Origin: Mycobacteriales bacterium
Lineage (GTDB): Bacteria > Actinomycetota > Actinomycetes > Mycobacteriales > SCTD01
DNA length: 64,000 bases
Reading direction: 5' to 3'
Assembly: GCA_038256525.1 (NCBI GenBank)
Contig: JBBSKF010000003.1
Coordinates: 2,516-66,515 of the forward strand
Shown here: positions 13,339 to 49,811 of the stretch, one piece after another
How the letters are laid out: each line of letters opens with the position of its first letter
How positions within the stretch are numbered: the first letter of the stretch is position 1
Notes under the pieces: model-generated
The model's input: only the letters and a program-made list of their open reading frames with translations
Databases searched by the model: none
Told to the model about the DNA's origin: nothing
Made by a program: the position numbers and the translations under genes

Positions 13339-15650
<2,312 letters not shown>

Positions 15651-24608: not shown

Positions 24609-25949
24609 ATGCACACGAGGGGGGACATCTCCACGCCGTCAGGCGCACCGGACGGGGCTGCCGCCGTGCCCGGAGAGCAGCAGCGGCGCCGGGGCACCGG
24701 GCCCTGGCTGCTGGTTCAGGACGTCCAGAGGGCAAAGCACCGCGACCACCTGGCGCCCGGGTGGCTGCTGGTCGCGCTGCTCTCGGTGATCGGTCTGTCG
24801 GCGCTGCTCCACCACCGACGCAGTCGCGTCCCGGCGCTCGAGGTGCCGAGGCAGCGCACCCCGGACCTTCCGCAGACCGGGCTACCGGCGGGTCCCGTCC
24901 GCCGCGAGGTGGCGGTGCTCATCGCCACCCGCAACGGAGCCGACACCCTCGCCTCGACCATCGCCTCGGCCGCCGGGCAGGCAGACGTCTATGTCGTCTC
25001 CGACGGCTCCACCGACGACACCGCGCGCATCGCCGAGCAGAGCGGCGCCAAGGTTCTCGCGCTGTCGGTGAACATCGGCAAGCCGGCCGCGCTCTACCGC
25101 GCCAACCGGCACTTCGGGCTCACCACCGACTACCGCGCGGTCGCCGTGCTCGACGACGACACCGTCATCGGGCCGGAGTTCATCAAGCACTGCTTGGCCG
25201 GGCTGACCGACCGAGTCGCCATCGTGGTCGGCCGGACGATCACGAACTGGACGCGCGAGCACCGTTGGAACCCCTGGCTGGCCGTGCGCGCCTACTCCTA
25301 CTGGAAGTACCAGCTGCTCGTCCGCCGCGGTCAGAGCGCCTTGAACGTCATGAACTGCGTGTCGGGTAGCAACTCGCTCTACCGCTCCTCGGTGCTCGAG
25401 CAGGTGCTGGTCGAGGACACGCCGTACATCGTCGACGACACCTACTGGACGCTCGAGACCCACCGTCGCGGTCTCGGCCGCATCGTCTACGCGCCGAAGG
25501 CCACGGCGCTCATCTGCGACCCGCTGAACGGCCGCGACTGGTACAAGCAGAACCTGCGCTGGCTGTGGGGGACGATGCAGGGGATCCGCGGCCACCGCAT
25601 CGGCACCAAGCGGACGATGTTCGACTTCATGTACATCCTCATGATGCTGGACTGGTTCCTGTACGTCGTGGTCTGGCCGTTCTGGATCGCCGCCGTCTTC
25701 TGGGTCGGCCGGGACCACTGGCCTGTGCTGCTGGCCGTCTACCTGACCGGCTACCTCGTCTGGACCTCGATCGCGGCGATTGCGCTGCGCCGCTGGCGCC
25801 TGGTCCTGCTCACCCCGTTCGTCCTCGTCTTCGACTGGCTCTACCGCGTGAACTTCGCGCACGCGCTGGTCAAAGCCCTCCGGCAGCCGAGGGTCACCTC
25901 ATGCCGGTGGGAGTCCCCTTCCCGCTATGCACAAGGAGCAGCAGCATGA
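24609..25949 (+). CDS. membrane-bound processive GT2 glycosyltransferase (synthase-like)
   Basis: VAVLIATRNGADTL..VVSDGSTDDT, VLDDD (DxD), QNLRWLWG (QxxRW), and N- and C-terminal TM helices. Confidence 0.8.
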   Translation: MHTRGDISTPSGAPDGAAAVPGEQQRRRGTGPWLLVQDVQRAKHRDHLAPGWLLVALLSVIGLSALLHHRRSRVPALEVPRQRTPDLPQTGLPAGPVRREVAVLIATRNGADTLASTIASAAGQADVYVVSDGSTDDTARIAEQSGAKVLALSVNIGKPAALYRANRHFGLTTDYRAVAVLDDDTVIGPEFIKHCLAGLTDRVAIVVGRTITNWTREHRWNPWLAVRAYSYWKYQLLVRRGQSALNVMNCVSGSNSLYRSSVLEQVLVEDTPYIVDDTYWTLETHRRGLGRIVYAPKATALICDPLNGRDWYKQNLRWLWGTMQGIRGHRIGTKRTMFDFMYILMMLDWFLYVVVWPFWIAAVFWVGRDHWPVLLAVYLTGYLVWTSIAAIALRRWRLVLLTPFVLVFDWLYRVNFAHALVKALRQPRVTSCRWESPSRYAQGAAA

Positions 25950-26173
25950 CCGGTCCCACGAACTCAGCCAACGAAGTTGCCGCTCTCGGTACCTCCTTCG
26001 ACATGGGCGGCGGCATGGGAGGCGGTGAGTCGATGGGCTTCGGCGGCGCCGACGTCCTGCCCTTCACCGGTATCAGCACCGTCCCACTGGCCCTCGCCGG
26101 CCTGGTGGCTGCTGTCGTCGGCTCGGTGATGACCCGCCTCGGCCGGGACAAGACGCCGGTCGCCATCGACTGA
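25946..26173 (+). CDS. 75-aa Gly/Met-rich mini-protein ending in LPFTG + TM helix + basic tail
   Basis: MTGPTNSANEVAALGTSFDMGGGMGGGESMGFGGADVLPFTGISTVPLALAGLVAAVVGSVMTRLGRDKTPVAID. AAGGAG lies 7 nt upstream. ATGA overlap with the GT2 stop. It is a paralogue of 42197-42418. Confidence 0.6.
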   Translation: MTGPTNSANEVAALGTSFDMGGGMGGGESMGFGGADVLPFTGISTVPLALAGLVAAVVGSVMTRLGRDKTPVAID

Positions 26174-33132: not shown

Positions 33133-33206
33133 GGGGCCGTAGCCCAACGGCAGGAGGCGCGCCGCTTAGGTCGGCGACAGTGCGAGTTCGAATCTCGTCG
33201 GCCCCA
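33133..33206 (+). tRNA. 74-nt class-I tRNA with anticodon UAG (Leu by anticodon), atypical for bacterial tRNA-Leu
   Basis: Hand fold. The acceptor stem is GGGGCCG/CGGCCCC with A73. The anticodon stem is CGCCG/CGGCG with loop CUUAGGU (U33, anticodon 33167-33169 TAG, G37). The variable loop is 5 nt. The T arm is GCGAG-TTCGAAT-CTCGT. The D arm is weak (3 bp plus a C.A mismatch). No CCA is encoded. Confidence 0.7.
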
Positions 33207-38529: not shown

Positions 38530-39714
38530 ATGGTCGTCGCTCTCGCCCTCACTGCGGGTCTCGTTGCGGGTCTCCTGCTCGGCCTGGTCGCCGGTCGGCT
38601 GCTGGGTCGCCGCGACGAGCATCTGCTGTTGTCCTCTTTCGAGGGCCTGGCCGCACGGGCCCTCGCCGGCACGCGAGACGAGGCCGGCCGCGAGCTGGAC
38701 GGCCAGCGCCACGCCATGGACCAGCTCGTGACACCGCTGCGTCACCAGCTCGCGCAGGTGGAGATGCAGCTTCGCGGGTTGGAGGTCGAGCGGGCCAGAG
38801 CCCATGCCCAGCTGCAGGAGCAGGTGAGCGGGGTGCGCCGCAGCTCGGAGCTCCTCGGTCGCGAAACCGCCTCGTTGGTCGATGCGCTGCGCCGTCCGCA
38901 GGCGCGAGGCCGCTGGGGTGAGGTGCAGCTGCGGCGGTGCGTGGAGTTCGCCGGAATGGTCGACCGCTGTGACTTCACCGAGCAGGCGTCCATGGTTGCT
39001 GTCGATGGCGCCGTCCTGCGGCCCGATCTCGTGATTCGCCTCGCCGGCGGGCGCAGCGTCGTCGTCGACGCGAAGGTGACCCTTGCCGCCTACCTCGAGG
39101 CGATCGAGTGCGAGGACGACAAGCGGGCCCACGACCGCATGGCGGCGCACGCGCGTCATCTGCGCCGGCACGTCGACCGCTTGGCCGAGAAGTCCTACTG
39201 GGCAGCCCTACCCGACAGTCCAGAGTTCGTCGTGCTCTTCCTACCCGGCGAGGCGTTTCTGGCTCCGGCGCTCGAGCACGACCCGGCGCTGCTCGAGCAC
39301 GCGTATGCGCAGCGGGTCCACCTGGCGACGCCGACGACGCTGATCTCGCTGCTCCGCACCGTCGCGCACACCTGGCAGCAGGACTCGCTGACCGAGAATG
39401 CCCGAGCGGTCGTCGCGGCCGGCAAGGAGCTGTATTCCAGGCTCGAGATCCTGGGTGCTCACGTCGACAAGCTCGGCCGATCCCTGGGCACGGCGGTGAC
39501 CGACTTCAACAAGACGATCGGATCTCTGGAGCGGACGCTGCTTCCAGCGGTCCGGACACTGGCCGACTTGAGCCTGTCCGAGTCTGCCGGGCCAGCACAG
39601 CCGATCTCGACGCTGCCACGGCCGCTGTCCGCGCCTGAGCTCGTGGCTCCGCTGCCCTCTGTGCACGAAGCGGCCGGACAGGAGCTGAGCCGGAAGGCCC
39701 GCGTCGCTCAGTAG
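38530..39714 (+). CDS. rmuC: DNA recombination protein RmuC
   Basis: N-terminal TM, then coiled coil, then RGRWGEVQLRRCVEFAGM..VVVDAKV..FVVLFLPGEAF. Only the last 394 codons of the 1039-codon track ORF are used. Confidence 0.85.
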   Translation: MVVALALTAGLVAGLLLGLVAGRLLGRRDEHLLLSSFEGLAARALAGTRDEAGRELDGQRHAMDQLVTPLRHQLAQVEMQLRGLEVERARAHAQLQEQVSGVRRSSELLGRETASLVDALRRPQARGRWGEVQLRRCVEFAGMVDRCDFTEQASMVAVDGAVLRPDLVIRLAGGRSVVVDAKVTLAAYLEAIECEDDKRAHDRMAAHARHLRRHVDRLAEKSYWAALPDSPEFVVLFLPGEAFLAPALEHDPALLEHAYAQRVHLATPTTLISLLRTVAHTWQQDSLTENARAVVAAGKELYSRLEILGAHVDKLGRSLGTAVTDFNKTIGSLERTLLPAVRTLADLSLSESAGPAQPISTLPRPLSAPELVAPLPSVHEAAGQELSRKARVAQ

Positions 39715-40775
39715 CGTCGCCAGCGTGGCACCGGGCGGCGGGCAGACAGGGCCGGGCTCGCCGGCGGCTCGGACACGTCAGGCGCCTGATCGGTGAGCGG
39801 CTCTGCGGGGTCTGGGTTCCACGCGACAGGACTGTGCGCCTGCTCGACGAGGTCGAGGTTCTCCCGTCCCGGTTCGGGCGCCGCCTCGGGCTCGGGATCG
39901 AACGCGGCCTCCTCGGGCTCGACCTCGGGCTCGACCTCGGGCTCGGGCTCGACCTCGGGCTCGGGCTCGGGCTCGACGTCGGGCTCGTCCTCGTCCTCGT
40001 CCCAGTAGGAAGGCTGCTGTTCGACCGAGCTCGGCGACGGCGACTCGTCCTGCTCGTCGGCCCATGACGGGGTCGGCAGGCCGGCCACGCCGGCAGCCTG
40101 CAGCTGCAGCAGCGCCGTTGTCTCATCCAGCCGCCGATGCGCGGCGGCCATGCCGGCCGCCGCCGTTTCGAGGGCCGCGACAGCGCCCTCCACCCGCTCC
40201 TGCAACTCGGCACCGGCATCCTCGGCCACCCGGCCCGCCCGCGCAGCCGCCTCGTCGACGCGCGCATTCCAGTCGCCTTGCAGCGCCGAAACGGTGCGGC
40301 GTACCTGCTCGCAGGTGGTGGTCAGGGTCGCGAGCCGCTCCTGCGTGCTGCGGGTTGCCGCAGAGCCGGCCACCGACTGGGCCATCACCTCGGCAAGTCG
40401 GGCGCGGACAAGGCTGTGCTGCTCCTCGAGCCGGTCGAGCAGACTCTCCCGGAGTCGATCGGTGGCCCTCTCCACGCCGGTGGTGGTGTCGGTGAGGGCG
40501 GCGCGGGTGGTGTCGCCAGTGTCACTGACCGTCGCGACGACGCGATCGCGCACCGCTTCGAGCGCGTCGGCGAGGTCGACCCGCAGCGCCAGCAGGCTCG
40601 GGTCGGCTGCCTCGAAACCCGCCGCCACCTGCTGCCACATGGCTCGCTGGGCGGCGGCGGACTCGGCCAGGTCACGGCGCAGAGCGCGCAGCTCCGCCAC
40701 CACCGAGGCGCGTAGGAACTCCTGCGGATCAGCCTCCGGCGGACCGGCGTAACCGAGCGGCTGTTGCGGCTCCAC
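39708..40775 (-). CDS. hypothetical Ala/Arg/Glu-rich helical protein with acidic (PEPE/VEPE) repeat tail
   Basis: AAGGA RBS and GTG at 40775. The long helical low-complexity region is followed by DEDEDEPDVEPEPEPEVEPEPEVEPEVEPEE. Confidence 0.5.
   Translation of the reverse strand: MEPQQPLGYAGPPEADPQEFLRASVVAELRALRRDLAESAAAQRAMWQQVAAGFEAADPSLLALRVDLADALEAVRDRVVATVSDTGDTTRAALTDTTTGVERATDRLRESLLDRLEEQHSLVRARLAEVMAQSVAGSAATRSTQERLATLTTTCEQVRRTVSALQGDWNARVDEAAARAGRVAEDAGAELQERVEGAVAALETAAAGMAAAHRRLDETTALLQLQAAGVAGLPTPSWADEQDESPSPSSVEQQPSYWDEDEDEPDVEPEPEPEVEPEPEVEPEVEPEEAAFDPEPEAAPEPGRENLDLVEQAHSPVAWNPDPAEPLTDQAPDVSEPPASPALSARRPVPRWRRY
39884..40003. repeat. GGCTCG / GACCTC hexamer-based tandem repeats (code for the acidic PE/VE repeat)
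   Basis: Read directly: ..gggctcgacctcgggctcgacctcgggctcgggctcgacctcgggctcgggctcgggctcgacgtc.. Confidence 0.85.
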
Positions 40776-40847: not shown

Positions 40848-42086
40848 GTGGGAGCGTTTCGGCGACGTGCCGGCTCCTACCAGACGGACAACGGCCCGAC
40901 GCGCGAGGAGGTCCAGCTGACCGCGACGGGTGGCGACCCGGCTGCCGTCGGCATCGCCGTCGTGCTCGGCACCCGGCCGGATGCCCTCAAGCTCGCTCCG
41001 GTCGTCCAGGCGCTCCGGGCCTCCCCACTGTTCGACCCGGTGGTGATCGCCACCGGACAGCACCGCGAGATGCTCGATCAGGTCTTCGACGTCTTCGACC
41101 TGCGGCCGCAGGTCGACCTGCATGTGCTGCAGGACCGGCAGACCCTGACCAGCCTCACCGCTCGGGTGCTGACCGGTCTGGAGACGCTGCTCGCCGACCT
41201 GGCTCCGGCCGCCGTTGTGGTGCAGGGCGATACGACGACGACGTTCGCCGGTGCCCTCGCAGCCTTCTACGCCCGCATCCCGCTGGTCCACGTCGAGGCC
41301 GGCCTCCGTACGCACGATCGGTGGTCGCCCTACCCGGAGGAGATGAACCGTCGCCTGACCACGCAGCTGGCCGGGCTTCATCTGGCGCCGACCGAGCAGG
41401 CCCGGGACAACCTGCTCGTCGAGGGGATCGCCGCGGAGGCGGTGGTCGTCACCGGCAACACGAGCATCGACGCGCTGCTGTGGGCGGTGAACCGCCCAGC
41501 ACCGGACGACGCGCTGCTCGCCTCGCTCGGCGACGACCCGCGCCGGGTCCTGCTGGTCACCCTGCACCGGCGCGAGTCCTGGGGGGCACCGCTTCGAGCG
41601 GTCGCCGGCGCGCTCGCCGAACTGGCCCGCCTCGAGCCGGACCTGCTCCTGGTCCTGCCCCTGCACCGCAACCCCGTCGTCCGGGAGGCGCTGGTGCCGC
41701 TGCTCGGCGAGGTGGACAACGTACGACTGGTCGAACCGCAGGACTACGGGGTGTTCGTGCACCTCATGGCGCGGGCCGCCATCATCCTGACCGACTCTGG
41801 CGGCATCCAGGAGGAGGGGCCCAGCCTGGGCAAGCCGGTCCTGGTCGCGCGCGAGTCGACCGAACGACCGGAGGGCCTCGCGGCAGGCACGTCGTTGCTG
41901 GTGGGGACCGACGCCGAGCGCATCGTGACCGAAGTCCGGCGACTGCTGCACGATCCGGCGGCGTACCGCGCCATGGCTCGAGCAAGCAATCCGTACGGTG
42001 ATGGCCGGGCCGCCGAGCGGACGGTACTCGCGCTCGGACGCTTCCTCGGCGTGAGCGAACAGGGCATACCGGACTTCCGGCAATAA
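40848..42086 (+). CDS. wecB: UDP-N-acetylglucosamine 2-epimerase (non-hydrolysing)
   Basis: IAVVLGTRPDALKLAPV..TGQHREMLDQV..VQGDTTTTFAGALAAFY..VHVEAGLRT. The start is uncertain. Confidence 0.85.
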   Translation: MGAFRRRAGSYQTDNGPTREEVQLTATGGDPAAVGIAVVLGTRPDALKLAPVVQALRASPLFDPVVIATGQHREMLDQVFDVFDLRPQVDLHVLQDRQTLTSLTARVLTGLETLLADLAPAAVVVQGDTTTTFAGALAAFYARIPLVHVEAGLRTHDRWSPYPEEMNRRLTTQLAGLHLAPTEQARDNLLVEGIAAEAVVVTGNTSIDALLWAVNRPAPDDALLASLGDDPRRVLLVTLHRRESWGAPLRAVAGALAELARLEPDLLLVLPLHRNPVVREALVPLLGEVDNVRLVEPQDYGVFVHLMARAAIILTDSGGIQEEGPSLGKPVLVARESTERPEGLAAGTSLLVGTDAERIVTEVRRLLHDPAAYRAMARASNPYGDGRAAERTVLALGRFLGVSEQGIPDFRQ

Positions 42087-42196
42087 CCGTGCGTAACGTC
42101 CCAGTCCGGCAAACGGGCGCAGCCAGAACGGGACAAAGGGTGTTAGCCTCGCGTCTGCTCGCTGGAAGTTCGTCCCGCTGCTGCCCGGAGGTCCCT

Positions 42197-42418
42197 GTGT
42201 ACCGTGGTGTTCTCGGTGGTGGCGGTACGGCCGTGCTGGGCGTCGGTTTCACCGCCGACAGGCTGCCTCTCACCGGTGTGCCGCTGCTTCTGCTGCTGCT
42301 CATCGCGCTGACGATGATCGTGGTCGGCGTCGTGATGACCCGGGTGGCCTTCGGATCCGCACCCGCCGGTGGCCCGACGCCTGCGTCCCGGACGGGACGC
42401 GGCACCAAGGGGTCATGA
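42197..42418 (+). CDS. 73-aa Gly-rich mini-protein ending in LPLTG + TM helix + basic residues (candidate sorting substrate)
   Basis: MYRGVLGGGGTAVLGVGFTADRLPLTGVPLLLLLLIALTMIVVGVVMTRVAFGS.. GGAGG lies 5 nt upstream of GTG 42197. ATGA overlap with the next gene. The upstream part of the track ORF has low GC3. Confidence 0.6.
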   Translation: MYRGVLGGGGTAVLGVGFTADRLPLTGVPLLLLLLIALTMIVVGVVMTRVAFGSAPAGGPTPASRTGRGTKGS

Positions 42419-43002
42419 CCGTCGCGGAGCCGATCGCCGCTGCGGAGCCGGCGGGGCGCCCGTCGCGCACCACTTTCGTGCAAGCGACGTCGGCCCTGCT
42501 GGTCGTCAGCGCCCTGCTGCTGGTCACCTTCGTTCACTACGGCCAGGTGCTCGAGGCGAGTATCAGTGCGGGATTGATCAACGCTCTGCAGATCTCGACG
42601 GCCTACGTCGTCGACACGTCGGTGATCTTCCTGCCCGGTCAGCGCTATGCCGGCTTCACGGTCAGTGCCGGATGCACAGCGACGCTTCTGGTGGTGCCGT
42701 TCTTCTTGATCACCGCCGGCCTGCTGTCGTTCAGCCGTTTCTCGCTCCGGCGGAGCCTGACTGCGCTGGGCGTGGTCACCCTGCTGATCTACGTGGCCAA
42801 TCAGGCCCGGCTGCTGCTCATCGCCGGTGTCATGCGGCTGTTCGGAGGTGAGCGCGGCTACGAGCTCAGCCACGTCTTCCTGGGCACCATCGTGAGCACC
42901 CTCGGCGTGCTGTTCGCGATCGTCGCGTTCGTGGCCATCCTCGTGGGCTGGCGGCCGGCCCGCGCAGGTCGCCGCGAGACCGAACTGAGCCCCGTTGGCT
43001 GA
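42415..43002 (+). CDS. exosortase/archaeosortase-family-like polytopic membrane protein
   Basis: Ordered motifs FTVSAGCTATLL (Cys), YVANQARLLLIAG (NxxR, 42 aa after the Cys) and ELSHVFLGT (His, 21 aa after the Arg), all within TM segments. Confidence 0.6.
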   Translation: MTVAEPIAAAEPAGRPSRTTFVQATSALLVVSALLLVTFVHYGQVLEASISAGLINALQISTAYVVDTSVIFLPGQRYAGFTVSAGCTATLLVVPFFLITAGLLSFSRFSLRRSLTALGVVTLLIYVANQARLLLIAGVMRLFGGERGYELSHVFLGTIVSTLGVLFAIVAFVAILVGWRPARAGRRETELSPVG

Positions 43003-44707
43003 CCTCGGCTTCGCCGCGGCGAACGGCCTGGCCTTCCTGCTGTGCGTTCTGTTCCTCGGCTACGTCTCGCTCATCTTCGTGCCCTACTTCCGGCACCGGC
43101 CGACCGCGGCCGGGAACCAGCACCTGTTCCAGTGGCACTTCCTCGTGCCGTGCATGGACGAGCAGGCGGTGGTCGAGAAGACCGTGCGCGGCTTGCTCGC
43201 GTCGTTCCCGGCAGCACACGTCTGGGCGGTGGACGACGCCTCCGAGGACACCACCCTCGCCATCCTGCGCCGGCTCGAGCGACAGGACTCCCGCGTGCAC
43301 ATCGTCGCGCGGACCGCACCCGAGGCCAGGCAGGGAAAGGGCGCCGCGCTCAATGCCGGCTGGCGCGCCATTGACGAGGCACTGCCCGCCGGTCAGCCAC
43401 GCGAGCGAGTCTTGATCAGTGTCGTCGATGCCGACGCAGTGCTCGACACCGATGCCCTGGCCATGGTCGCCGGTCCGACGTTCTTCGGCGACCACGAGGT
43501 CGGCGCGGTCCAGATCCAGGTCCGGGTCCGACCTGATCCCTTCCGCCCGATGAACGACCAGCCGTCGATCCCCCGGCGGCAACGGCTGCTGATCGCGCTG
43601 CAGGACCTCGAGTTCACCGGCCCGATCGCCGCCATGCAGATGCTCCGGAGCAAGACCGGCAGCGTGGCGATGGGTGGCAACGGCCAGTTCACCCGGCTGT
43701 CGGTGCTCAACGACGTCGCCGACCGGCACGGCACGCCCTGGCACGGCGCCCTGCTCGAGGACTTCGAGCTCGGCCTGCACGTCCTGCTGGCCGGTTCGCG
43801 TACGGCGTACTGCCACGACACCTCGGTGATCCAGGAAGGCGTTCCCCGCGTCGTGCCGCTGGTGCGCCAGCGCAGCCGATGGGCACAGGGCAGCATGCAG
43901 TGCCTCAGCTACCTGCGCGAGATCCTGCGCACGCGCCACCTGACCGCGGGTGGGACGCTCGAGATCGCCTACTTCCTGTTCTCGCCGTGGGTCCAGCTCG
44001 TCGGCGGTGTCGTCTACGCCACGCTCTTCTCCTCGGCCGCCTACTACGCCTTCACCGACCCCCTCGGGGTCGGGCACTGGTGGGGGGGTGGCGCCTGGGG
44101 CCTGGTGCCGCTGTTCCTGCTGTTCGGGGTCTCGCCCTTCCTCATCTGGGCCTTCATGTACCGCTCCCGGGTCCGTCCGGAGCTCAGCCTCTGGCGCGCG
44201 CTCGGGCTGGGGCTGGTCAACGCGCTCTACGTCTACTTCCACCAGGCGGCCACCTGGTGGGCGTTCTACCGCGTGATGACGGCACGCACCGACTGGAAGA
44301 AGACCGTCCGCTACTCCCAGCACGCCGTCGACGCCGCGCTCGACCTGCTGTTCCGGCCGCCCGCCCGCCCGCCCGGCGAGGCCCTGGCCCGCCTGCGCGG
44401 GAGTCGGGGCCCGGCGCCGTCTCGACCGCGCTCGGCGACGAGCGCCGCCGTCGCCTCTCAGTCCTCGCTCGCCCGGCTGCGCCGGGCGACCGTCACGCCA
44501 CTGCAATCACCTGTTACACAGCGTGACGAAAAGGCTCTTCGAGGTCTGCGCGGAGCGTCCCCTTCGCCCATGTCTGTCGTATTTGCGGGGGTTCACAAAC
44601 CCCAGGTGGATGCGCTACGGTACGACCCACTTTCGCCCCCCGCTCCACCCGTCCCATGGGTCCCGGACGCCGTCCGCGGTTCCGAACCTGTCACTGCGAG
44701 TCACTGA
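42995..44707 (+). CDS. membrane-bound processive GT2 glycosyltransferase (synthase-like)
   Basis: AVDDASEDTT, VVDADAVLD (DxD), QRSRWAQG (QxxRW), multiple C-terminal TM helices and a long Pro/Arg-rich tail. TTG start overlaps the previous gene by 8 nt. Confidence 0.8.
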   Translation: MADLGFAAANGLAFLLCVLFLGYVSLIFVPYFRHRPTAAGNQHLFQWHFLVPCMDEQAVVEKTVRGLLASFPAAHVWAVDDASEDTTLAILRRLERQDSRVHIVARTAPEARQGKGAALNAGWRAIDEALPAGQPRERVLISVVDADAVLDTDALAMVAGPTFFGDHEVGAVQIQVRVRPDPFRPMNDQPSIPRRQRLLIALQDLEFTGPIAAMQMLRSKTGSVAMGGNGQFTRLSVLNDVADRHGTPWHGALLEDFELGLHVLLAGSRTAYCHDTSVIQEGVPRVVPLVRQRSRWAQGSMQCLSYLREILRTRHLTAGGTLEIAYFLFSPWVQLVGGVVYATLFSSAAYYAFTDPLGVGHWWGGGAWGLVPLFLLFGVSPFLIWAFMYRSRVRPELSLWRALGLGLVNALYVYFHQAATWWAFYRVMTARTDWKKTVRYSQHAVDAALDLLFRPPARPPGEALARLRGSRGPAPSRPRSATSAAVASQSSLARLRRATVTPLQSPVTQRDEKALRGLRGASPSPMSVVFAGVHKPQVDALRYDPLSPPAPPVPWVPDAVRGSEPVTASH

Positions 44708-44717
44708 GGGAGCCTTC

Positions 44718-45497
44718 ATGGCCACGACCCGGAGCGCGCGAGTCCTCGCCGCCGGCTTCACTGCAAGTCTCATCCTGGTCTCCGCCTCGCCTGCCGCGGC
44801 ACAGGAGACCGGCACCGTCAACGGCAGTGCGTTCGGTGCCTCGATCAAGCTGGGCGGCGAGAACCTCCTGACGCCGACGCCACTCGTGAACCTGCCAGAG
44901 GACGGCACGTTCACAGAGGACGACACCGCCAACGTCGCCCTGCCTGGACTGCTCGACGCCCGCGTCCTTCGCGCCGAGACCGAAGGCGACCCGGAGACCG
45001 GAACGTCGACGGCGACTGGGGAGGTTGCCGACGTCGAGGTGCTGCCTGGACCGCTCGGAGCGACGCCGAGCTTGCTCAGCGCCGATGCCATCAGCGCCAC
45101 CTGCACGGTCGGACCCGATGGCGACGACTTTGTTGGCTCGGCGACCTTGGCCAACGTCGTGCTCAGCAACGGCACCGTGCTCGACGTCAGTCCTGGTGCA
45201 AATACTGACGCGGACCTTCTGGTGGCCGAGATCTTCCTGAACGAGCAGACGGACAACGGTGACGGCAGCTTCACCGTCAACGCCATTCGCATCGTCCTGC
45301 TCCCAGGCCTCGTGCCCAGCGATCGAGACGGCCTGGAGATCATCCTCGGCTCGGCGACCTGCGGCCCGAACAGCGCCGCGCCGCCGATCAACGCCATCCC
45401 GACCGCCGGTCTGCCGATCGCGGCCGGGATCGTCGCCGCCTTCGTTCTCGGCGTCGTCGTGATGCGCCGCCGCGAGATGGGTCCGTTCGCCGCCTGA
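44718..45497 (+). CDS. secreted protein (signal peptide, beta-rich 'LNEQ' domain) with C-terminal IPTAG + TM + RRR anchor signal
   Basis: MATTRSARVLAAGFTASLILVSASPAAAQE.. ..AEIFLNEQTDNG.. ..INAIPTAGLPIAAGIVAAFVLGVVVMRRREMGPFAA. Confidence 0.7.
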   Translation: MATTRSARVLAAGFTASLILVSASPAAAQETGTVNGSAFGASIKLGGENLLTPTPLVNLPEDGTFTEDDTANVALPGLLDARVLRAETEGDPETGTSTATGEVADVEVLPGPLGATPSLLSADAISATCTVGPDGDDFVGSATLANVVLSNGTVLDVSPGANTDADLLVAEIFLNEQTDNGDGSFTVNAIRIVLLPGLVPSDRDGLEIILGSATCGPNSAAPPINAIPTAGLPIAAGIVAAFVLGVVVMRRREMGPFAA

Positions 45498-45516
45498 CCT
45501 TGCAATGACGTTCTCG

Positions 45517-45555
45517 ACACCGCGGGCGAAGGGTTGGTGACTTCGCCCGCGGTGT
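45517..45555 (+). terminator. perfect 15-bp stem / 9-nt loop hairpin (intrinsic-terminator-like)
   Basis: ACACCGCGGGCGAAG-ggttggtga-CTTCGCCCGCGGTGT followed by TGTGT, 20 nt after the stop at 45497. Confidence 0.6.
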
Positions 45556-45583
45556 TGTGTCCAGGTGTGGCACGCTTGCGGTG

Positions 45584-47257
45584 ATGTCAGGAGGGCCTGC
45601 TGTGGAGCCGAGCGGGTCAGCGGGAGTGCCTGAGGTCGCTGGAGTGCCTGCCAACGCCGAGATCACCGCACTGCGGGCCGAGCTGGAGGCTCTGCGCGGC
45701 CAGGTGGGTGCCGCCCTCCAGACCGGACTCGAGCGGGTTGCGGCCCGCACCGAAGCACGCCTGGACGACGTGATGGACACCCTGGGCGGCCGGCTGAGCG
45801 CCCGACTGGACGCGGCGGCGGCCGATCTCCGGCGCACCCTGAATGCCGCGCTCGAGGTCCAGGTCGACACCGCGGCCGTCACCCAGGCTGCAACGGCAGA
45901 CACCCGGTCAGCCCTCGAGTCACGGGCGGTGGTCATCGAGACGGCTGTGACCGCGCTGGCCGAGCGGGTCGAGAGCCTCAACCGCGAAGGGGCCGAGGGC
46001 GCCCGCCAGCAGGTACGTGCGCTGGCCGCCGACCTCGCGACCTTGCGGCAGTGGGTCGACCCGGTCGAGAACCGGCGGTTGCGCGCTGAGGCGCAGGGTC
46101 GGGTGGAGAATGCACTGGTCAGCCGGGACCAGCGGCTGCTCGGCACGGTGTCCGACCTGCTGACCGCCGTGACCTCCGAGCGGGTGGCCACGCAGGCGCG
46201 GCTGCTGCAGCTCGAGGACGCGACGTCCCGGGTGCTGGACGCGCTGCTGACCCTTGATGAGAGGGGCGCCTCGCGCGCCGCTACCAGTGCTGCGCAGGTG
46301 GACGCCCTGCTCGCCGGCACGCAGGACCGCGTCGATGCGGTCCGCGCGGACGTGCGCAGCCAGCTCGCTCAGATCCGCGAGGAGCTGAGCTCCGAGCTGG
46401 GCACCCTGCGCTCGGAGCTGCACCAGGTGTCCGCCAACAGCGCGGCCGCAGGCCTTGCCGTCGAGACCCTGCCCATCCGCCTGGAGCAGGCCCTCAGCCG
46501 GGCCCAGGGCGCGATCATGATCGATTCCGCGCCAGCCGGCCAGAGCGGCCGTACGGCCCTGCTGCAGCTGCTCGCCGAGCACCGCGACGAGGTCACCACG
46601 CGCATGGACGAGTTCGCCGCGCTGGTCACCGAGACCGGAGCCTCCACGGGAGAGGCGCTCCAGGCTGTCGCGGAGCAGGTCCGCCGTGTCTCGAGTGGCC
46701 AATCCGCCGTTCCCGCCGAGCCGGGCACCCCTGTGCCGGTCGCCGAGACACCGCTCCAGCAACCTGTCACGCCGCGCAAGAAGAAGGCCGCTGCAAAGAC
46801 GGGCGCAGCCCGCGCGGCTCCCGCCAAGCCCCGCCGGGCGGCCGCGACGGGCAGCGACGCGGACTCTGCTGTCACCCCACGACGCCCCCGCGCCTCGACC
46901 TCGACCCCGGCCTCGACCTCGGCCCCGACCAGGTCGACCTCGGTCAGGCAGGACGGCGTGACCGCCCCACGCCGCACAACGCCGACCAAGCGCGCCACGG
47001 CGGCGGGAACAGCCAAGCCTGGTGCGCCGAGCACCGCGAAGGCGCGGCCGCTGTCCGAACAGACGAGTGAACCGGCTCAGCCGGTCCGCCCGGTGGCACC
47101 ACGCCGGGCCACACCGGTTGCGGCGGCACGCCGGCAGGTCAAGGCTGTCGCGGCCTATGCGCCGGAGCCCTCTTCGACCGACACCGCAGCCCAGGCCCGC
47201 GCCGAGGCCGAGCAGATCGAACCGGTGCGCCGGCTGTTCGCCCGCCGGCGCCTCTGA
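45584..47257 (+). CDS. hypothetical long helical Ala/Arg/Glu-rich protein with basic Pro/Ala/Thr-rich C-terminal tail
   Basis: High GC3. The start is ATG 45584, or GTG 45602 preceded by AGGAGG. The track start at 45557 lies inside the terminator hairpin. Confidence 0.5.
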   Translation: MSGGPAVEPSGSAGVPEVAGVPANAEITALRAELEALRGQVGAALQTGLERVAARTEARLDDVMDTLGGRLSARLDAAAADLRRTLNAALEVQVDTAAVTQAATADTRSALESRAVVIETAVTALAERVESLNREGAEGARQQVRALAADLATLRQWVDPVENRRLRAEAQGRVENALVSRDQRLLGTVSDLLTAVTSERVATQARLLQLEDATSRVLDALLTLDERGASRAATSAAQVDALLAGTQDRVDAVRADVRSQLAQIREELSSELGTLRSELHQVSANSAAAGLAVETLPIRLEQALSRAQGAIMIDSAPAGQSGRTALLQLLAEHRDEVTTRMDEFAALVTETGASTGEALQAVAEQVRRVSSGQSAVPAEPGTPVPVAETPLQQPVTPRKKKAAAKTGAARAAPAKPRRAAATGSDADSAVTPRRPRASTSTPASTSAPTRSTSVRQDGVTAPRRTTPTKRATAAGTAKPGAPSTAKARPLSEQTSEPAQPVRPVAPRRATPVAAARRQVKAVAAYAPEPSSTDTAAQARAEAEQIEPVRRLFARRRL

Positions 47258-47268
47258 ACAGGAGCCAG

Positions 47269-48312
47269 GTGCCGAACGACGCCGTAGGGAGCAGCGCGGA
47301 CGAGCAGGCACTCGCCCGGCTGCGCGGTGTCGGAGCCGAGCCACCTTCACCCGCCGCCCCAGCGGCCGACCCGCCTCGGCCGGAACCACCCCCGGCCGTC
47401 CTCGAGCCCACCAGTGCCGCTACCGGCCCCGCCACCGGTGCCGCGCCCCGGCCGGCGTCCGCCGCACGCCTGCGCCGCGCGCTGGGCAACGTCGCCGGCA
47501 TGGTCGCGCTCATCGTTGCCGTTGCCGCTGGAACGCTCACCGCCTTCGCCGAGCAGGCGCCTGCCGGTGTGCCGGTCTCCGACCAGCCGATCGGCAGCTG
47601 CTTTCGTGCGCTGGATCCCTATGAGCTCGTCGCGATCCCCAGCGACTCGAGCCTGCCCGTTCCGTGCACACAACCGCACGAGACCGAGTCGATGTGGACG
47701 ATCGAGCTGACCGGACCGATCGCGGCAGCCAGGGTTCGCCCCAACGGTCAGCTGCTGAACCAGCAGTCGGGCGGCAGGTGCTTCGACTACGCACGCACCA
47801 GGGCCTATGTCGGCGCCGGGCCGTCGGACAACGTCGGGGGGGTCAACGCGGTGTCGCGCTTCCCGACAGCTGCCCAGTGGGCCGCCGGGGTGCGGGACGT
47901 GGTCTGCCAGGGATCGGCGGGTCTTCGGCCGCCGACCGGTCCCACCACCGACTTCCCCCTGGCCGGCGTCATGAGCCGGGCGGAGTCGGTGCGCTTTCGG
48001 CTCTGCCGCGCCAATCGCACCGAGCTGACCTGCGACCGGCCCCACACGTCCGAGGCGACCAGCCCGGACGTGATCCTGCCGGCGGGACCGTTTCCCGGCG
48101 CTGTCGCCGGGACCTCGTTGGCCGTGACGGCCTGCCGCCCGGTGGTCGAGGCCTACCTGGAGGCTCCGCTCGCCTCCCGACCGGACCTGGCCATCCTGGT
48201 CGATGGCCCCCGGGAGCGGGCGTGGGCTGAGGGAAACCGATCGGTCAACTGCTCCATCGCCTACGTCGACGGGCGCACGACGACGACCACGCTTCGGGGT
48301 GGTCTCCCATGA
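47269..48312 (+). CDS. septum-formation-family membrane protein
   Basis: Pro-rich N-terminus, one TM, then repeated C..(x)..C.QPHE.E patterns (GSCFRAL..PCTQPHETE; RLCRAN..LTCDRPHTSE). Confidence 0.55.
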   Translation: MPNDAVGSSADEQALARLRGVGAEPPSPAAPAADPPRPEPPPAVLEPTSAATGPATGAAPRPASAARLRRALGNVAGMVALIVAVAAGTLTAFAEQAPAGVPVSDQPIGSCFRALDPYELVAIPSDSSLPVPCTQPHETESMWTIELTGPIAAARVRPNGQLLNQQSGGRCFDYARTRAYVGAGPSDNVGGVNAVSRFPTAAQWAAGVRDVVCQGSAGLRPPTGPTTDFPLAGVMSRAESVRFRLCRANRTELTCDRPHTSEATSPDVILPAGPFPGAVAGTSLAVTACRPVVEAYLEAPLASRPDLAILVDGPRERAWAEGNRSVNCSIAYVDGRTTTTTLRGGLP

Positions 48313-49811
48313 CGATGACCGAGGCTCCCGCGGCCCGGCCGGTCCCGCCGGAGACAGCGCCGCCCGTCGGGCCGGGCCACGGCCGGAAGCTGGTCGTTGC
48401 CGCGATCGTGACAGGCGTGGTCTGGACCGGCATCGTGCTGGCCCGGCTGTTCGTCGGCGGCGCGATCGGCATGGGGGACCAGGGCGACGGCCGCCGGTTG
48501 ATGTGTCAGCTCGGCGTCCGCAGCAACGCACCGTTCGACGCGAACCCGTCGGCGTTCCTCTACCCGACCTATGTCCCGCACACCTGGTACGGCGAGGCGT
48601 GCGCCGACTCGGCGGGGGGCATCTACCGTACGTCGGAGATCGCCCTGCTGTCGCTGGCCAAGATTCTGACGCCGGTGCTGGGCCTGCCTGGGGCGCTGGA
48701 CCTGCGTGCCCTCGGAGTGATCTTCGCGGTGTTCACCGGTCTGTGCGTGGGTGCACTGGTGTTGGCCCTGCCTGGCGTGCTCCTCCTGCGGGTCGGCGTT
48801 GCGTCGCTGGTCGGACTGCTCGCCGCAGACAGCGCCGTCGCCCAGTACTTCATCTCCCCGTACAGCGAAGCCGCCGGGCTGATCGCGCTGATCGCCCTCT
48901 GTCCGGCGCTGCTGCTGCTGTGGCGACGGGGTCACACCACCTGGCCGACACTGGCGGCCGTCGGCTTCCTGTCGGCGGTGGCGCTCGGGGCGAAGACGCA
49001 GACCGCGGGGCTGCTGCCGGCGCTGCTGGTGGCGATTCTCTGGCTGCCGCACCGCCGCGGTGGGCCCTGGGCCGTGACGCGGATCCCCGGCCTCACGCTC
49101 AGCGCCCTGCTGGTCTGCCTCGTAGCGTATTTCGCGGCAACCAGTCCGGTCGGCCTCGCACAGCAGAACGTCTACGGTCAGGTCTTCGGGACCATCCTGC
49201 CCAACAGCCCGGACCCGGCGGCCGACCTTCGCAGCCTGGGTGCCGACCCGTCGCTCGCCGACGCGTCGGGGACCAGCCCGGAGAGTCCTGGTGCGGCCTC
49301 GCAGCGCCTGGAATACCTGACGTTCCGCGAGGAGGTCACCACCTCCAGCTATGTCCGCTTCTACCTGACGCACCCGGACCGGCTGGTGTCCCTCGGCGGG
49401 ATCGGCCTGCAGGGGGTGGCGCGCTGGCGGCAGGACTACCTGGGCAGCTACCTGCCCGACTCGGGTCAGAAGCCGCTGGCCATCGAGAGCCGCGTCGACG
49501 TCTACGGCTCCATGTTCCGGGACGCCTTCTCGCTGGTGATCGTCCTGTTCTGGCTGGGCCTGCTCTACGTCGGTGTCCGCACTGCCCGTGACCGTCGGCT
49601 CTCGACGCCGGAGCAGAACCTCGGCCGGTTGTCGGTCTTCCTCGCCGCCGGGTCGCTGTCCCAGTTCTGGACGGTGCTGATCTTCAACGGCTTCCCCGAC
49701 CTGTTCAAGCAATTGATCTTCACGAACCTCTTGCTGGCCCTTGGCGTGCCGGTGATGGTGGCCTGCGTCGCTGTACGCAGCAGGGCTTTCCGGCAGCGGT
49801 CTAGGGCGTGA
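48309..49811 (+). CDS. polytopic integral membrane protein (hypothetical, possibly GT-C-like)
   Basis: 500 aa with more than 9 hydrophobic segments. 4-nt overlap with the upstream gene. No diagnostic motif was recognised. Confidence 0.5.
   Translation: MTMTEAPAARPVPPETAPPVGPGHGRKLVVAAIVTGVVWTGIVLARLFVGGAIGMGDQGDGRRLMCQLGVRSNAPFDANPSAFLYPTYVPHTWYGEACADSAGGIYRTSEIALLSLAKILTPVLGLPGALDLRALGVIFAVFTGLCVGALVLALPGVLLLRVGVASLVGLLAADSAVAQYFISPYSEAAGLIALIALCPALLLLWRRGHTTWPTLAAVGFLSAVALGAKTQTAGLLPALLVAILWLPHRRGGPWAVTRIPGLTLSALLVCLVAYFAATSPVGLAQQNVYGQVFGTILPNSPDPAADLRSLGADPSLADASGTSPESPGAASQRLEYLTFREEVTTSSYVRFYLTHPDRLVSLGGIGLQGVARWRQDYLGSYLPDSGQKPLAIESRVDVYGSMFRDAFSLVIVLFWLGLLYVGVRTARDRRLSTPEQNLGRLSVFLAAGSLSQFWTVLIFNGFPDLFKQLIFTNLLLALGVPVMVACVAVRSRAFRQRSRA

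Follow-up and report, generated by a model that had tools for sequence, protein, structure and literature searches.

The 64,000-nucleotide stretch of Mycobacteriales DNA analysed here (the window, 64 kb) very probably carries a genuine actinobacterial exosortase cassette, in which an exosortase/archaeosortase superfamily protein is encoded together with a predicted processive glycosyltransferase (GT2), a secreted protein and a 73-aa mini-protein. The mini-protein is a real gene under purifying selection that travels with the cassette. The features of the cassette and its surroundings are as follows.

40848-42086, plus strand: wecB, non-hydrolysing UDP-GlcNAc 2-epimerase (TIGR00236, PF02350)
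42197 (GTG) to 42418 (TGA), plus strand: mini-protein ORF, 73 aa; GGAGG at 42188-42192
42415-43002, plus strand: Xrt-like exosortase-family gene, 195 aa
42995 (TTG) to 44705-44707 (stop), plus strand: predicted processive membrane GT2 synthase, 570 aa
44718 (ATG) to 45497 (end of stop), plus strand: choice-of-anchor P (CoaP-like) secreted protein, 259 aa
45515-45557, plus strand: GC-rich hairpin with a perfect 17-bp stem (fold energy compared with shuffles)
47269-48312, plus strand: Septum_form-domain protein (PF13845)
48309-49811, plus strand: WsfD-like polytopic glycan hexose transferase (NF051875)

Re-reading of the sequence confirmed the tight packing described by an earlier, sequence-only reading: four plus-strand genes overlap or abut in one run that closes at the 17-bp hairpin. 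The mini-ORF and the Xrt-like gene share ATGA at 42415-42418, the Xrt-like gene and the GT2 gene overlap by 8 nt at the TTG start 42995, and the 10-nt gap between the GT2 and the secreted protein contains GGGAG. The hairpin folds at about -35 to -40 kcal/mol (-40.3; z = -3.95), and none of 200 shuffles was equally stable. A simple U-tract-dependent terminator scan did not call it, as the U-tract is absent; the hairpin is terminator-like and closes the four-gene run.

The 195-aa product is a member of the exosortase/archaeosortase superfamily, as had been proposed from its motifs. When 42415-43002 was searched against exosortase profiles, as the sequence-only reading had suggested, the product passed the TIGR04178 signature (32.1 bits, cut-off 23), while the XrtG model gave no match. 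Among the named models it scored 67.3 bits for XrtP (cut-off 200), 58.2 for XrtS (145) and 43.9 for XrtR (150), and none of 40 relatives reached any named cut-off. Since 67 bits lie far below the XrtP cut-off of 200, the protein falls outside XrtP proper, in an unnamed actinobacterial clade close to XrtP, XrtS and XrtR. The proposed catalytic residues, i.e., C87 in FTVSAGCTATLL, N129 and R132 in VANQARLLL and H153 in ELSHVFLGT, are unchanged in all 40 diverse relatives and also in a set of 12. The AF2 model (pLDDT 74.7) has four long helices and a beta-hairpin immediately before C87; Cys87, Arg132 and His153 form a putative active site near the outer membrane face.

The GT2 had been described as a processive synthase with DxD and QRSRW, and both its motifs and its predicted fold agree with this. 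D80, D145xD147, E255D256 and Q292RSRW296 are present with flanking membrane segments, and residues 469-570 form a disordered Pro/Arg/Ala-rich tail. The best PDB fold matches of the AF2 model (pLDDT 79.8) are the hyaluronan synthases of Chlorella virus (CvHAS) and Xenopus (XlHAS1), BcsA and Chs1 (E 1e-14 to 1e-9). These features indicate a processive, membrane-embedded synthase with a hyaluronan/cellulose-synthase-like fold. It has in common with hyaluronan synthase, BcsA, PgaC/IcaA, chitin synthase and NodC the D, DxD, ED and QxxRW motifs and the membrane-helix bundle; however, identity to the solved processive synthases is just 13–20%, its scores are far under the equivalog cut-offs of PgaC, NodC and CelA, and it has no PilZ domain. 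Its alignment to the "XrtP-associated glycosyltransferase" model NF053846 runs over the full length (513.9 bits, cut-off 520).

The protein encoded at 44718-45497 has an N-terminal signal peptide and scores 95.1 bits with the choice-of-anchor P model NF040603 (cut-off 27), but just 15.2 bits with CoaP_CTERM, NF053845 (cut-off 35). Its C-terminal signal consists of AIPTAGLPIAAG, a membrane segment and RRRE. In loci with a readable CoaP C-terminus, the homologous tails read [IFV]-P-x-x-G-[LVA]-P-[IVL]-A, followed by a membrane segment and RRR(R). By these profile and tail matches it classifies as a choice-of-anchor P protein, a catalogued kind of target. The sequence-only reading, which called it an anchored secreted protein, had treated it as a bystander.

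Cassettes that combine an exosortase with a polysaccharide synthase and a secreted cargo are already catalogued as the XrtP/CoaP type, and three of the catalogued models are matched by the GT2 and the downstream protein of the window. The statement that no described example was known does not stand, since NCBIfam holds XrtP (NF012139), the XrtP-associated glycosyltransferase (NF053846), choice-of-anchor P (NF040603) and CoaP_CTERM (NF053845); our literature search found no paper on this XrtP/GT/CoaP system, which is known from the annotation database alone. The window's cassette has in common with it a short exosortase of about 160–200 aa, a CoaP with a motif, membrane segment and Arg cluster, and a single operon; the GT2 comes within 6 bits of the GT cut-off and the choice-of-anchor P cut-off is well exceeded. 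It differs in that the exosortase, the CoaP C-terminal signal and the GT are all under the model cut-offs, and in having the extra conserved mini-protein.

The mini-protein features reported previously, i.e., a 73-aa ORF with LPLTG and without a signal peptide, preceded by a GGAGG ribosome-binding site and beginning with GTG, were all recovered. A longer ORF starting at GTG 42089 is not supported, because the orthologues all start with Met-Tyr and upstream GC3 is low. The order of elements is Met-Tyr, a Gly-rich head, LPLTG, a 21-residue uncharged segment, Arg and a loosely conserved tail, with no passenger domain. The proposed tripartite sorting signal holds for LPLTG, the hydrophobic stretch and the Arg; it does not end at TR, as had been stated, since about 25 weakly constrained residues follow in the window's clade. 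Conservation and co-occurrence with the exosortase gene, which the sequence-only reading had singled out for checking, were found in 22 of the 25 related loci, which reach from Acidimicrobiales to Micromonospora, and gene callers also predicted the gene independently. Family members have 50–80 residues, and the alignment of the 22 loci contains in-frame indels and third-position changes. M1, Y2, L23, T26, G27, P29, L35, A37, L38, G44 and R49 are invariant. In the motif L-[P/A]-x-T-G, Thr-Gly is invariant, position 2 is Pro or Ala only and x is free, and the first charged residue follows Thr-Gly after 21 residues in 25 of 27 sequences.

It has to be considered whether the mini-ORF is a mere translated leader that couples or regulates exosortase expression and makes a functionless peptide. 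The ATGA overlap with the exosortase start and the weakly constrained C-terminal 25 residues (pN/pS 0.74) fit such a role. In contrast, the motif and membrane segment have a pN/pS of 0.17 and are conserved at the amino-acid level from Acidimicrobiales to Micromonospora, and the gene, which in 19 loci overlaps the exosortase start or ends directly at it, persists away from it elsewhere: in L003, as a mini-CoaP tandem on the opposite strand within the cassette, and in L022 of Aquihabitans, with the order Xrt-CoaP-mini-GT. We regard the leader explanation as very improbable. It is quite likely that the product is a functional membrane peptide with its N-terminus outside. This topology, with the C-terminus inside, is a prediction that the charge bias fits, there being 3–5 Lys/Arg after the membrane segment and 1–2 before it; the peptide looks like a passenger-less sorting signal with N-out insertion.

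As a full explanation, to which we give slightly less than even weight, the locus would be a dedicated exosortase cassette of monoderm Actinomycetota, the counterpart of the catalogued XrtP/GT/CoaP system, embedded in a surface-glycan cluster. WecB would provide UDP-ManNAc, the GT2 would polymerise and extrude a HexNAc-containing glycan, and the WsfD-like transferase would probably decorate this glycan outside the membrane. The exosortase would act as a transpeptidase on proteins in which a motif is followed by a membrane segment and a basic tail. One target would be the choice-of-anchor P protein, exported by the Sec route and carrying IPTAGLPIAAG, a membrane segment and RRRE as its signal, and the other the mini-protein, inserted N-out without a signal peptide. 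Because its N-terminus would lie outside, L-[P/A]-x-T-G would be placed exactly at the outer membrane face, and cleavage would release or transfer the Gly-rich head of about 25 residues. The acceptor and any protein-glycan link are inferred.

The sequence-only reading had proposed a dedicated processing system with the mini-protein as its substrate. The mini-protein as the substrate is uncertain in view of its sortase-type motif, its lack of a statistical match to the CoaP signal, an LPFTG copy without an exosortase and a Modestobacter locus in which Xrt, GT and CoaP are present but 15 kb contain no mini-protein. Scored against a profile of CoaP tails, the mini-proteins reach 5 bits at most, so the two signals are not demonstrably one class. 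We know of no exosortase for which cleavage of an LPXTG-like motif has been shown.

Another possibility, which we consider somewhat less likely, is that a housekeeping sortase (class E/F) encoded elsewhere cuts the Thr-Gly bond of the mini-protein and attaches the short Gly-rich head to peptidoglycan, with the exosortase handling CoaP only; the peptide would then work with the GT2 product, e.g., as a glycan anchor or attachment point, or as a surface-modifying peptide. Actinobacterial sortases read LPXTG and, for class E, LAXTG (PMC5148588). L-[P/A]-x-T-G, about 21 uncharged, hydrophobic residues and a basic tail together make up a classic cell-wall sorting signal, and the LA/LP alternation fits these specificities (PMC5148588), whereas the CoaP signals have A, K or Q in place of the Thr. 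The Aquihabitans orthologue passes the TIGR01167 LPXTG_anchor model (20.8 bits, cut-off 15.9), and many LAxTG orthologues match NF058583, "LAXTG motif-containing small protein", weakly: those of clade B, Micromonospora and Aquihabitans align over most of its 54 positions at 17–28 bits, none reaching the cut-off of 65. The copy in the window matches neither model. The absence of a signal peptide is unusual for sortase substrates, a passenger domain is also lacking, and the gene is translationally coupled to an exosortase gene rather than a sortase gene, a coupling that persists over order-level divergence. No sortase gene was found in the Pfam-annotated cassette neighbourhoods, nor by a TLxTC motif scan of the window, which is a weak test. 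The signal is more than a chance match: when 237 kb were scanned in six frames with a cell-wall-sorting-signal regular expression, the mini-proteins and one paralogue-like ORF matched, with one further dubious minus-strand match near window position 1070. Processing by the exosortase rather than a sortase has, in our judgement, not quite an even chance.

A second mini-protein, with LPFTG, lies in the window directly 3' of another processive-type GT2 (24609-26173; QxxRW motif, 56 bits with the PgaC_IcaA model). The 64 kb encode no second exosortase, either near this copy or elsewhere. The exosortase-free surroundings favour the sortase explanation, and the position next to a GT2 favours the view that the mini-protein remains uncleaved, either as a GT2 subunit or regulator resembling IcaD or PgaD, or as a pseudo-substrate that occupies or regulates the exosortase. 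Known PNAG synthases require small membrane partners (IcaAD, PgaCD), every mini-protein cassette has a processive GT2, and within the mini-protein constraint is strongest in the membrane segment. Nevertheless, it is hard to see why an uncleaved partner would keep L-[P/A]-x-T-G invariant exactly where the membrane begins, or its N-terminal Met-Tyr unchanged, and hyaluronan synthases, which the GT2 resembles most closely in structure, act as single polypeptides; we consider this explanation rather improbable.

Returning to the exosortase cassette, the earlier view that the Gram-positive XrtG system has no recognised substrate is outdated, as a Firmicu-CTERM target is annotated beside XrtG and glycosyltransferases (PMC12854382). 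In Firmicutes this system comprises the Firmicu-CTERM protein, XrtG and one or two glycosyltransferases. The L. plantarum genes carry consecutive locus tags in the order CTERM-XrtG-GT-GT (PMC12854382). The mini-Xrt-GT order of the window parallels this. Both are Gram-positive exosortases tied to GT2 genes with a sorting-signal protein encoded adjacently, although the window's mini-protein does not match a Firmicu-CTERM model. TIGR03111 did not match the XrtP-type GT2 either; only the second GT2 of the window and the Aquihabitans GT match it weakly. According to Haft, a dedicated sorting system can be recognised when adjoining genes encode the enzyme and a target with a tripartite signal (bioRxiv 10.1101/2023.06.07.544157). 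L001 and L002 hold mini, Xrt and GT genes with no CoaP gene within about 4 kb downstream.

The gene immediately upstream of the mini-ORF is wecB, as reported earlier (TIGR00236, 467.9 bits; PF02350, 383 bits). An epimerase gene lies inside the cassette in L003, L004, L011, L014, L017, L018 and L022-L024, and L007 has a cut upstream gene whose end resembles wecB. Downstream, the Septum_form product (PF13845, 58 bits) has counterparts downstream in L011 and fused to wecB in L022. The WsfD-like product (NF051875, 298.7 bits, cut-off 80) has about 8–10 hydrophobic segments, with YfdI_N products at the corresponding position in L011 and L022. Both genes probably belong to an extended envelope cluster.

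The locus represents an unnamed actinobacterial clade of exosortase, glycosyltransferase family 2 (GT2) synthase and choice-of-anchor P (CoaP) protein, to which a tightly coupled L(P/A)xTG mini-protein is added. Five co-directional genes with a hairpin at their end occupy 40848-45557 of the plus strand of the window (G+C 70.5%), and the features of the four-gene run and hairpin that had been described by the sequence-only reading were all correct on re-check. The genes are arranged as follows:

40848-42086, plus strand: wecB (TIGR00236, 468 bits)
GTG 42197 to 42418, plus strand: mini-ORF, 73 aa, with GGAGG five bases upstream
42415-43002, plus strand: exosortase-like gene (Xrt), 195 aa, with an ATGA overlap with the mini-ORF
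TTG 42995 to 44707, plus strand: GT2 gene, 570 aa, with an 8-nt overlap
ATG 44718 to 45497, plus strand: CoaP-like secreted protein gene, 259 aa, preceded by a 10-nt gap containing GGGAG
45515-45557: hairpin with a perfect 17-bp stem (z = -3.95), without a U-tract

A longer mini-ORF of 109 aa, starting at 42089, was ruled out by the conserved Met-Tyr start and the low GC3 upstream. When the 64-kb window was searched with Rfam for a regulatory RNA upstream of the cassette, the single match was a tRNA (33133-33206, plus strand).

The 195-aa protein was recognised by TIGR04178, the exosortase/archaeosortase signature, at 32.1 bits (cut-off 23), as were 28 of 40 Xrt relatives, while its match to Pfam EpsH was weak (14.9 vs 25.7). 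No substitution at C87, N129, R132 or H153 was seen among 12 close relatives or among 40 relatives with identities of 28-94%, which upholds the earlier assignment of this product to the exosortase/archaeosortase family. The putative catalytic residues lie at the ends of predicted helices 2, 3 and 4. The AF2 model (pLDDT 74.7) has four long helices and a beta-hairpin immediately before Cys87, and together with the distribution of charged residues it suggests that the Cys, Arg and His are situated near the outer leaflet. The closest named models are those of the short exosortases XrtP (NF012139; 67.3 bits, cut-off 200), XrtS (58 bits, cut-off 145) and XrtR (44 bits, cut-off 150), all far under their cut-offs. 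The XrtP model gave a best E of 2.5e-24 among the 40 relatives and scored the Micromonospora, Modestobacter and Aquihabitans homologues at 48-55 bits; none of the 40 reached the cut-off of a named type. The XrtG model, to which the sequence-only reading had pointed, did not match Xrt at E <= 1. Taken together, the signature match, the invariant residues and the sub-cut-off scores argue, at the level of sequence, that Xrt truly belongs to the exosortase family, in an as yet unnamed clade of actinobacteria, and is neither XrtP proper nor XrtG.

Only 11 Xrt relatives were found by a word-sharing search of 5.8 billion proteins, and an exhaustive profile-free search returned 342 related cluster representatives at E <= 1e-3. 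Among GTDB species-representative genomes there was no close copy, the best being 46% identical in Acidimicrobiales MAGs, and thus the source lineage is poorly sampled. One called protein, P0179 (128 aa, from an NCBI contig of 510 bp), consists of an N-terminal half of the Xrt clade that ends just before the catalytic Cys and is joined to a mini-protein C-terminus, VGLARTGVPVLG...RAGMVRHGS. The probable explanation, on what is a very short contig, is an assembly chimera, a genuine rearrangement being a possible alternative.

The GT2 protein carries D80, D145xD147, E255D256 and Q292RSRW (292-296) with flanking membrane segments. Its AF2 model (pLDDT 79.8) best resembles Chlorella virus and Xenopus hyaluronan synthases, BcsA and chitin synthase (E 1e-14 to 1e-9), with CvHAS (1.2e-14), BcsA (5.8e-13) and Chs1 (1.5e-9) as top Foldseek matches. 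These motifs and the predicted fold support the earlier description of the protein as a processive membrane synthase. Against NF053846, the XrtP-associated glycosyltransferase, it scored 513.9 bits over model positions 5-437 of 440, 6 bits short of the cut-off of 520; the homologous glycosyltransferases of Micromonospora and Aquihabitans scored 515.3 and 498.

The downstream product has a signal peptide, a choice-of-anchor P domain (NF040603, 95.1 bits over residues 32-213, cut-off 27) and a C-terminal tripartite signal, AIPTAGLPIAAG followed by a membrane segment and RRRE. It had been correctly described as an anchored secreted protein, and its role as the likely catalogued target, CoaP, had been overlooked. 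The motif [IFV]PxxG[LVA]P[IVL]A is conserved in 10 CoaP homologues, and the window protein has the tripartite architecture; CoaP_CTERM (NF053845) scored it at 15.2 bits (E = 0.013), under the cut-off of 35. NCBIfam already catalogues exosortase, GT2 and CoaP together, so the statement of the sequence-only reading that no described example was known does not hold for the core of the system. The window resembles the catalogued XrtP/CoaP system in the end-to-end alignment of its GT2 and in its choice-of-anchor P domain, and differs from XrtP proper in the low scores of Xrt and of the CoaP C-terminus. Our literature search found no paper on XrtP, on choice-of-anchor P in the CoaP sense, or on the pairing of a small LAXTG protein with a glycosyltransferase.

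To follow the mini-protein we collected 24 related loci, from six Acidimicrobiales MAGs, four metagenome contigs, eleven contigs with close homologues and three complete genomes reached through glycosyltransferase homologues (Aquihabitans sp. G128, Micromonospora sp. NBC_01699 and Modestobacter roseus); the locus scans with the 12-sequence alignment yielded only 4 metagenome loci and 6 genome loci. With the window included, 22 of 25 loci have a mini-ORF, of 48-79 aa, and its 4-nt overlap with the exosortase start is usual. Gene callers, working independently, annotate it in all contigs reached via an exosortase homologue, as well as in Aquihabitans and Micromonospora, and the exact 73-aa protein of the window is a called gene in the source record, a single 66,642-bp NCBI/Logan contig that carries the window's exact proteins. 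The Micromonospora copy, 48 aa long with LAATG, lies near 2.040 Mb of CP109199.1. The mini-ORF is retained despite rearrangement in Aquihabitans, where the order is Xrt-CoaP-mini-GT, and it is still in the cassette in a locus with a mini-CoaP tandem on the opposite strand (L003). Two of the three loci without it are cut off; the third, that of Modestobacter roseus (L024, 5384-9309), with none within 15 kb, is the one complete locus lacking the mini-protein. There the CoaP signal is divergent, AVPLHAATSGG instead of PxxG[LVA]P, and the usual mini-protein site is taken by a 350-aa protein that overlaps the exosortase start and has a sub-threshold GAF match (18.7 bits, gathering cut-off 22.4).

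Across nine close loci the mini-ORF indels are in frame, and pN/pS is 0.17 for the motif and membrane segment, 0.45 for the head and 0.74 for the tail. The residues M1, Y2, L23, T26, G27, P29, L35, A37, L38, G44 and R49 are invariant. An alignment of orthologues gives the register L-[P/A]-x-T-G-[V/F]-P with an invariant Thr-Gly, and rules out an FPLLG register in Acidimicrobiales in which the Thr of LPLTG would not be conserved. The mini-proteins of the window's clade and of Aquihabitans have LPxTG (x = R, T, V, L, F or N), those of other Acidimicrobiales and of Micromonospora LA[R/A/V]TG. Based on these results the mini-ORF, which the sequence-only reading had taken for a mini-protein gene coupled to the exosortase, is a genuine, conserved partner of the cassette. 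The protein has no signal peptide; it begins with Met-Tyr and continues with a Gly-rich head. In 25 of 27 sequences, exactly 21 uncharged residues come after TG. There are 3-5 Lys/Arg beyond this stretch compared to 1-2 before it, a distribution from which an N-out/C-in topology is predicted, placing the motif at the outer face of the membrane.

That the exosortase processes this peptide, as had been proposed, is the reading we tentatively favor, at somewhat less than an even chance; the mini-protein stands as part of an exosortase system, and as the substrate of Xrt it is the subject of one of two nearly equal readings. The coupling of the mini-ORF and the Xrt gene persists across order-level divergence, and in two of the related loci (L001 and L002) no signal-bearing protein other than the mini-protein is encoded near Xrt. 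An enzyme and a tripartite-signal target in consecutive genes is the criterion of Haft for dedicated sorting systems (bioRxiv 10.1101/2023.06.07.544157), and the window pair fits it. In L. plantarum, a Firmicu-CTERM target is annotated adjoining XrtG and two glycosyltransferases (PMC12854382), which makes the view of a Gram-positive XrtG without recognised substrate out of date. This order of CTERM protein, XrtG and two glycosyltransferases parallels the mini-protein, Xrt and GT2 of the window, in favor of processing by the exosortase; unlike that system, the window has no XrtG match for Xrt and no match of its GT2 to TIGR03111, the glycosyltransferase model of the XrtG system.

Processing by a conventional sortase, which is possible if rather unlikely in our estimate, draws on the signal itself. 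The sortase-type pattern (LPXTG/LAXTG, hydrophobic segment, basic tail) was found in every mini-protein orthologue, and the invariant Thr-Gly with Pro or Ala at position 2 corresponds to the LPXTG motif of sortases and the LAXTG motif of class E (PMC5148588). The Aquihabitans mini-protein passes the LPXTG-anchor model TIGR01167 at 20.8 bits (cut-off 15.9); the homologous protein P0168 scored 12.3, and the window mini-protein gave no match at E <= 1. NF058583, the LAXTG motif-containing small protein (cut-off 65), also had no match to the window mini-protein, and it matched 8 of 13 orthologues below its cut-off (best E 3.8e-4), aligning along most of the length with the LAxTG copies and the LPVTG copy of Aquihabitans (Micromonospora 27.8 bits, Aquihabitans 25.1 and the single protein P0182 25.1). 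The CoaP signals, in contrast, carry A, K or Q where the mini-protein has Thr, and against a profile built from ten CoaP tails the mini-proteins stay at or below 5 bits. This profile and the converse search, in which the mini-protein profile matched no CoaP ORF, gave no statistical support for a stand-alone CoaP C-terminal signal as the identity of the mini-protein; the two share a loose hydrophobic-P-x-x-G-hydrophobic-P pattern. A scan of the 64-kb window for TLxTC, a weak test for sortases, found none, and no other sortase substrates by which to ask whether LA or LP tracks the host were found in 237 kb of loci.

The window contains a second pair of GT2 and mini-protein, downstream of a divergently transcribed gene:

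23004-24491, minus strand: GH5 cellulase-family gene
24609-25949, plus strand: second membrane GT2, 446 aa, with the QxxRW-type motif KQNLRW (PgaC_IcaA model 56 bits, XrtG-associated glycosyltransferase model 31 bits)
25946-26173, plus strand: second mini-ORF, 75 aa (MTGPTNSANEVAALGTSFDMGGGMGGGESMGFGGADVLPFTGISTVPLALAGLVAAVVGSVMTRLGRDKTPVAID), with a 4-nt overlap with the GT2 and an AAGGAG ribosome-binding site

The second mini-ORF is a called gene in the source record and is matched by the mini-protein profile at E = 4e-5. Its product has a Gly-rich head, LPFTG, 21 uncharged residues and the basic tail TRLGRDK, and no signal peptide. An LPFTG peptide beside a different GT2 of processive type, with no second exosortase in the 64-kb window, argues for a sortase as the processing enzyme. 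A third explanation, that the mini-protein stays uncleaved as a subunit of the GT2 synthase, we consider unlikely, and the small remainder is left to other explanations.

The mini-protein might also join the two systems as an adaptor, an idea to which we give very little probability. N-out insertion without a signal peptide would leave the invariant Met-Tyr unprocessed and would thereby keep this N-terminus and the Gly-rich head at the outer face. The head could then be the acceptor of the exosortase for CoaP, the site on which the GT2 glycan is built or to which it is attached, or both, and a housekeeping sortase would fix the conjugate to peptidoglycan through L-[P/A]-x-T-G. If true, the adaptor would be the first exosortase-to-sortase relay and would reveal the acceptor of exosortase cargo in monoderm bacteria.

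To our knowledge, the acceptor and the biological role of exosortases are undefined outside a few archaeal and Gram-negative cases, and there have been no Gram-positive tests. It is a minimal cassette, in which a single enzyme and a single synthase go with one or two targets, and it is present in cultured organisms for which complete genomes exist (Micromonospora sp. NBC_01699, Aquihabitans sp. G128 and Modestobacter roseus); therefore cleavage and the attachment target of a Gram-positive exosortase are directly testable, and the cassette offers a culturable test bed for the function of these enzymes. Because the intact and T|G-cleaved forms of the passenger-less L(P/A)xTG peptide differ in mass, it offers a simple assay, and it also discriminates between exosortase and sortase action. 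Should the peptide be a primer, anchor or adaptor for the glycan or CoaP, Actinobacteria would have a new means of attaching their surface polymers; should it be a sortase substrate of the ordinary kind, the locus would be no more than a relative, as yet unnamed, of the XrtP/CoaP system.

The genes flanking the cassette in the window are the following:

39708-40700, minus strand: Ala/Glu/Arg-rich ORF on the upstream flank, with an (E/V)PEPE repeat
45557-47257, plus strand: Ala/Glu/Arg-rich ORF, 566 aa, downstream of the hairpin, with a counterpart in L011
47269-49811, plus strand: Septum_form-domain protein and WsfD-like polytopic hexose transferase (NF051875, 298.7 bits)

Both Ala/Glu/Arg-rich proteins are probably coiled-coil; the upstream counterpart in the related locus L017 matches Apolipoprotein weakly. 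For the downstream ORF, GTG 45557 falls within the hairpin, so its true start is uncertain. The Septum_form and WsfD-like neighbors recur in the related locus L011 (10858-12579) and in Aquihabitans (L022, 8353-14090), and this recurrence points to the cassette being part of a larger envelope-glycan cluster. In Aquihabitans the wecB epimerase is fused to a Septum_form domain, which suggests a functional link between the two proteins. Proteins of c-di-GMP turnover flank the cassette in the loci with precomputed Pfam calls:

L022 (Aquihabitans), 1731-2426 and 14100-15356: EAL protein and GGDEF-EAL protein
L024 (Modestobacter roseus), 1-1748: GAF-PAS-GGDEF-EAL protein

These neighbors are a hint that the cassette is regulated as other synthase-dependent polysaccharides are. 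In the long ORFs of the window itself, a search for a GGDEF motif came up empty. The large upstream ORFs in three of the related loci (L001, L002 and L006) are, by eye only, similar to c-di-GMP turnover proteins.
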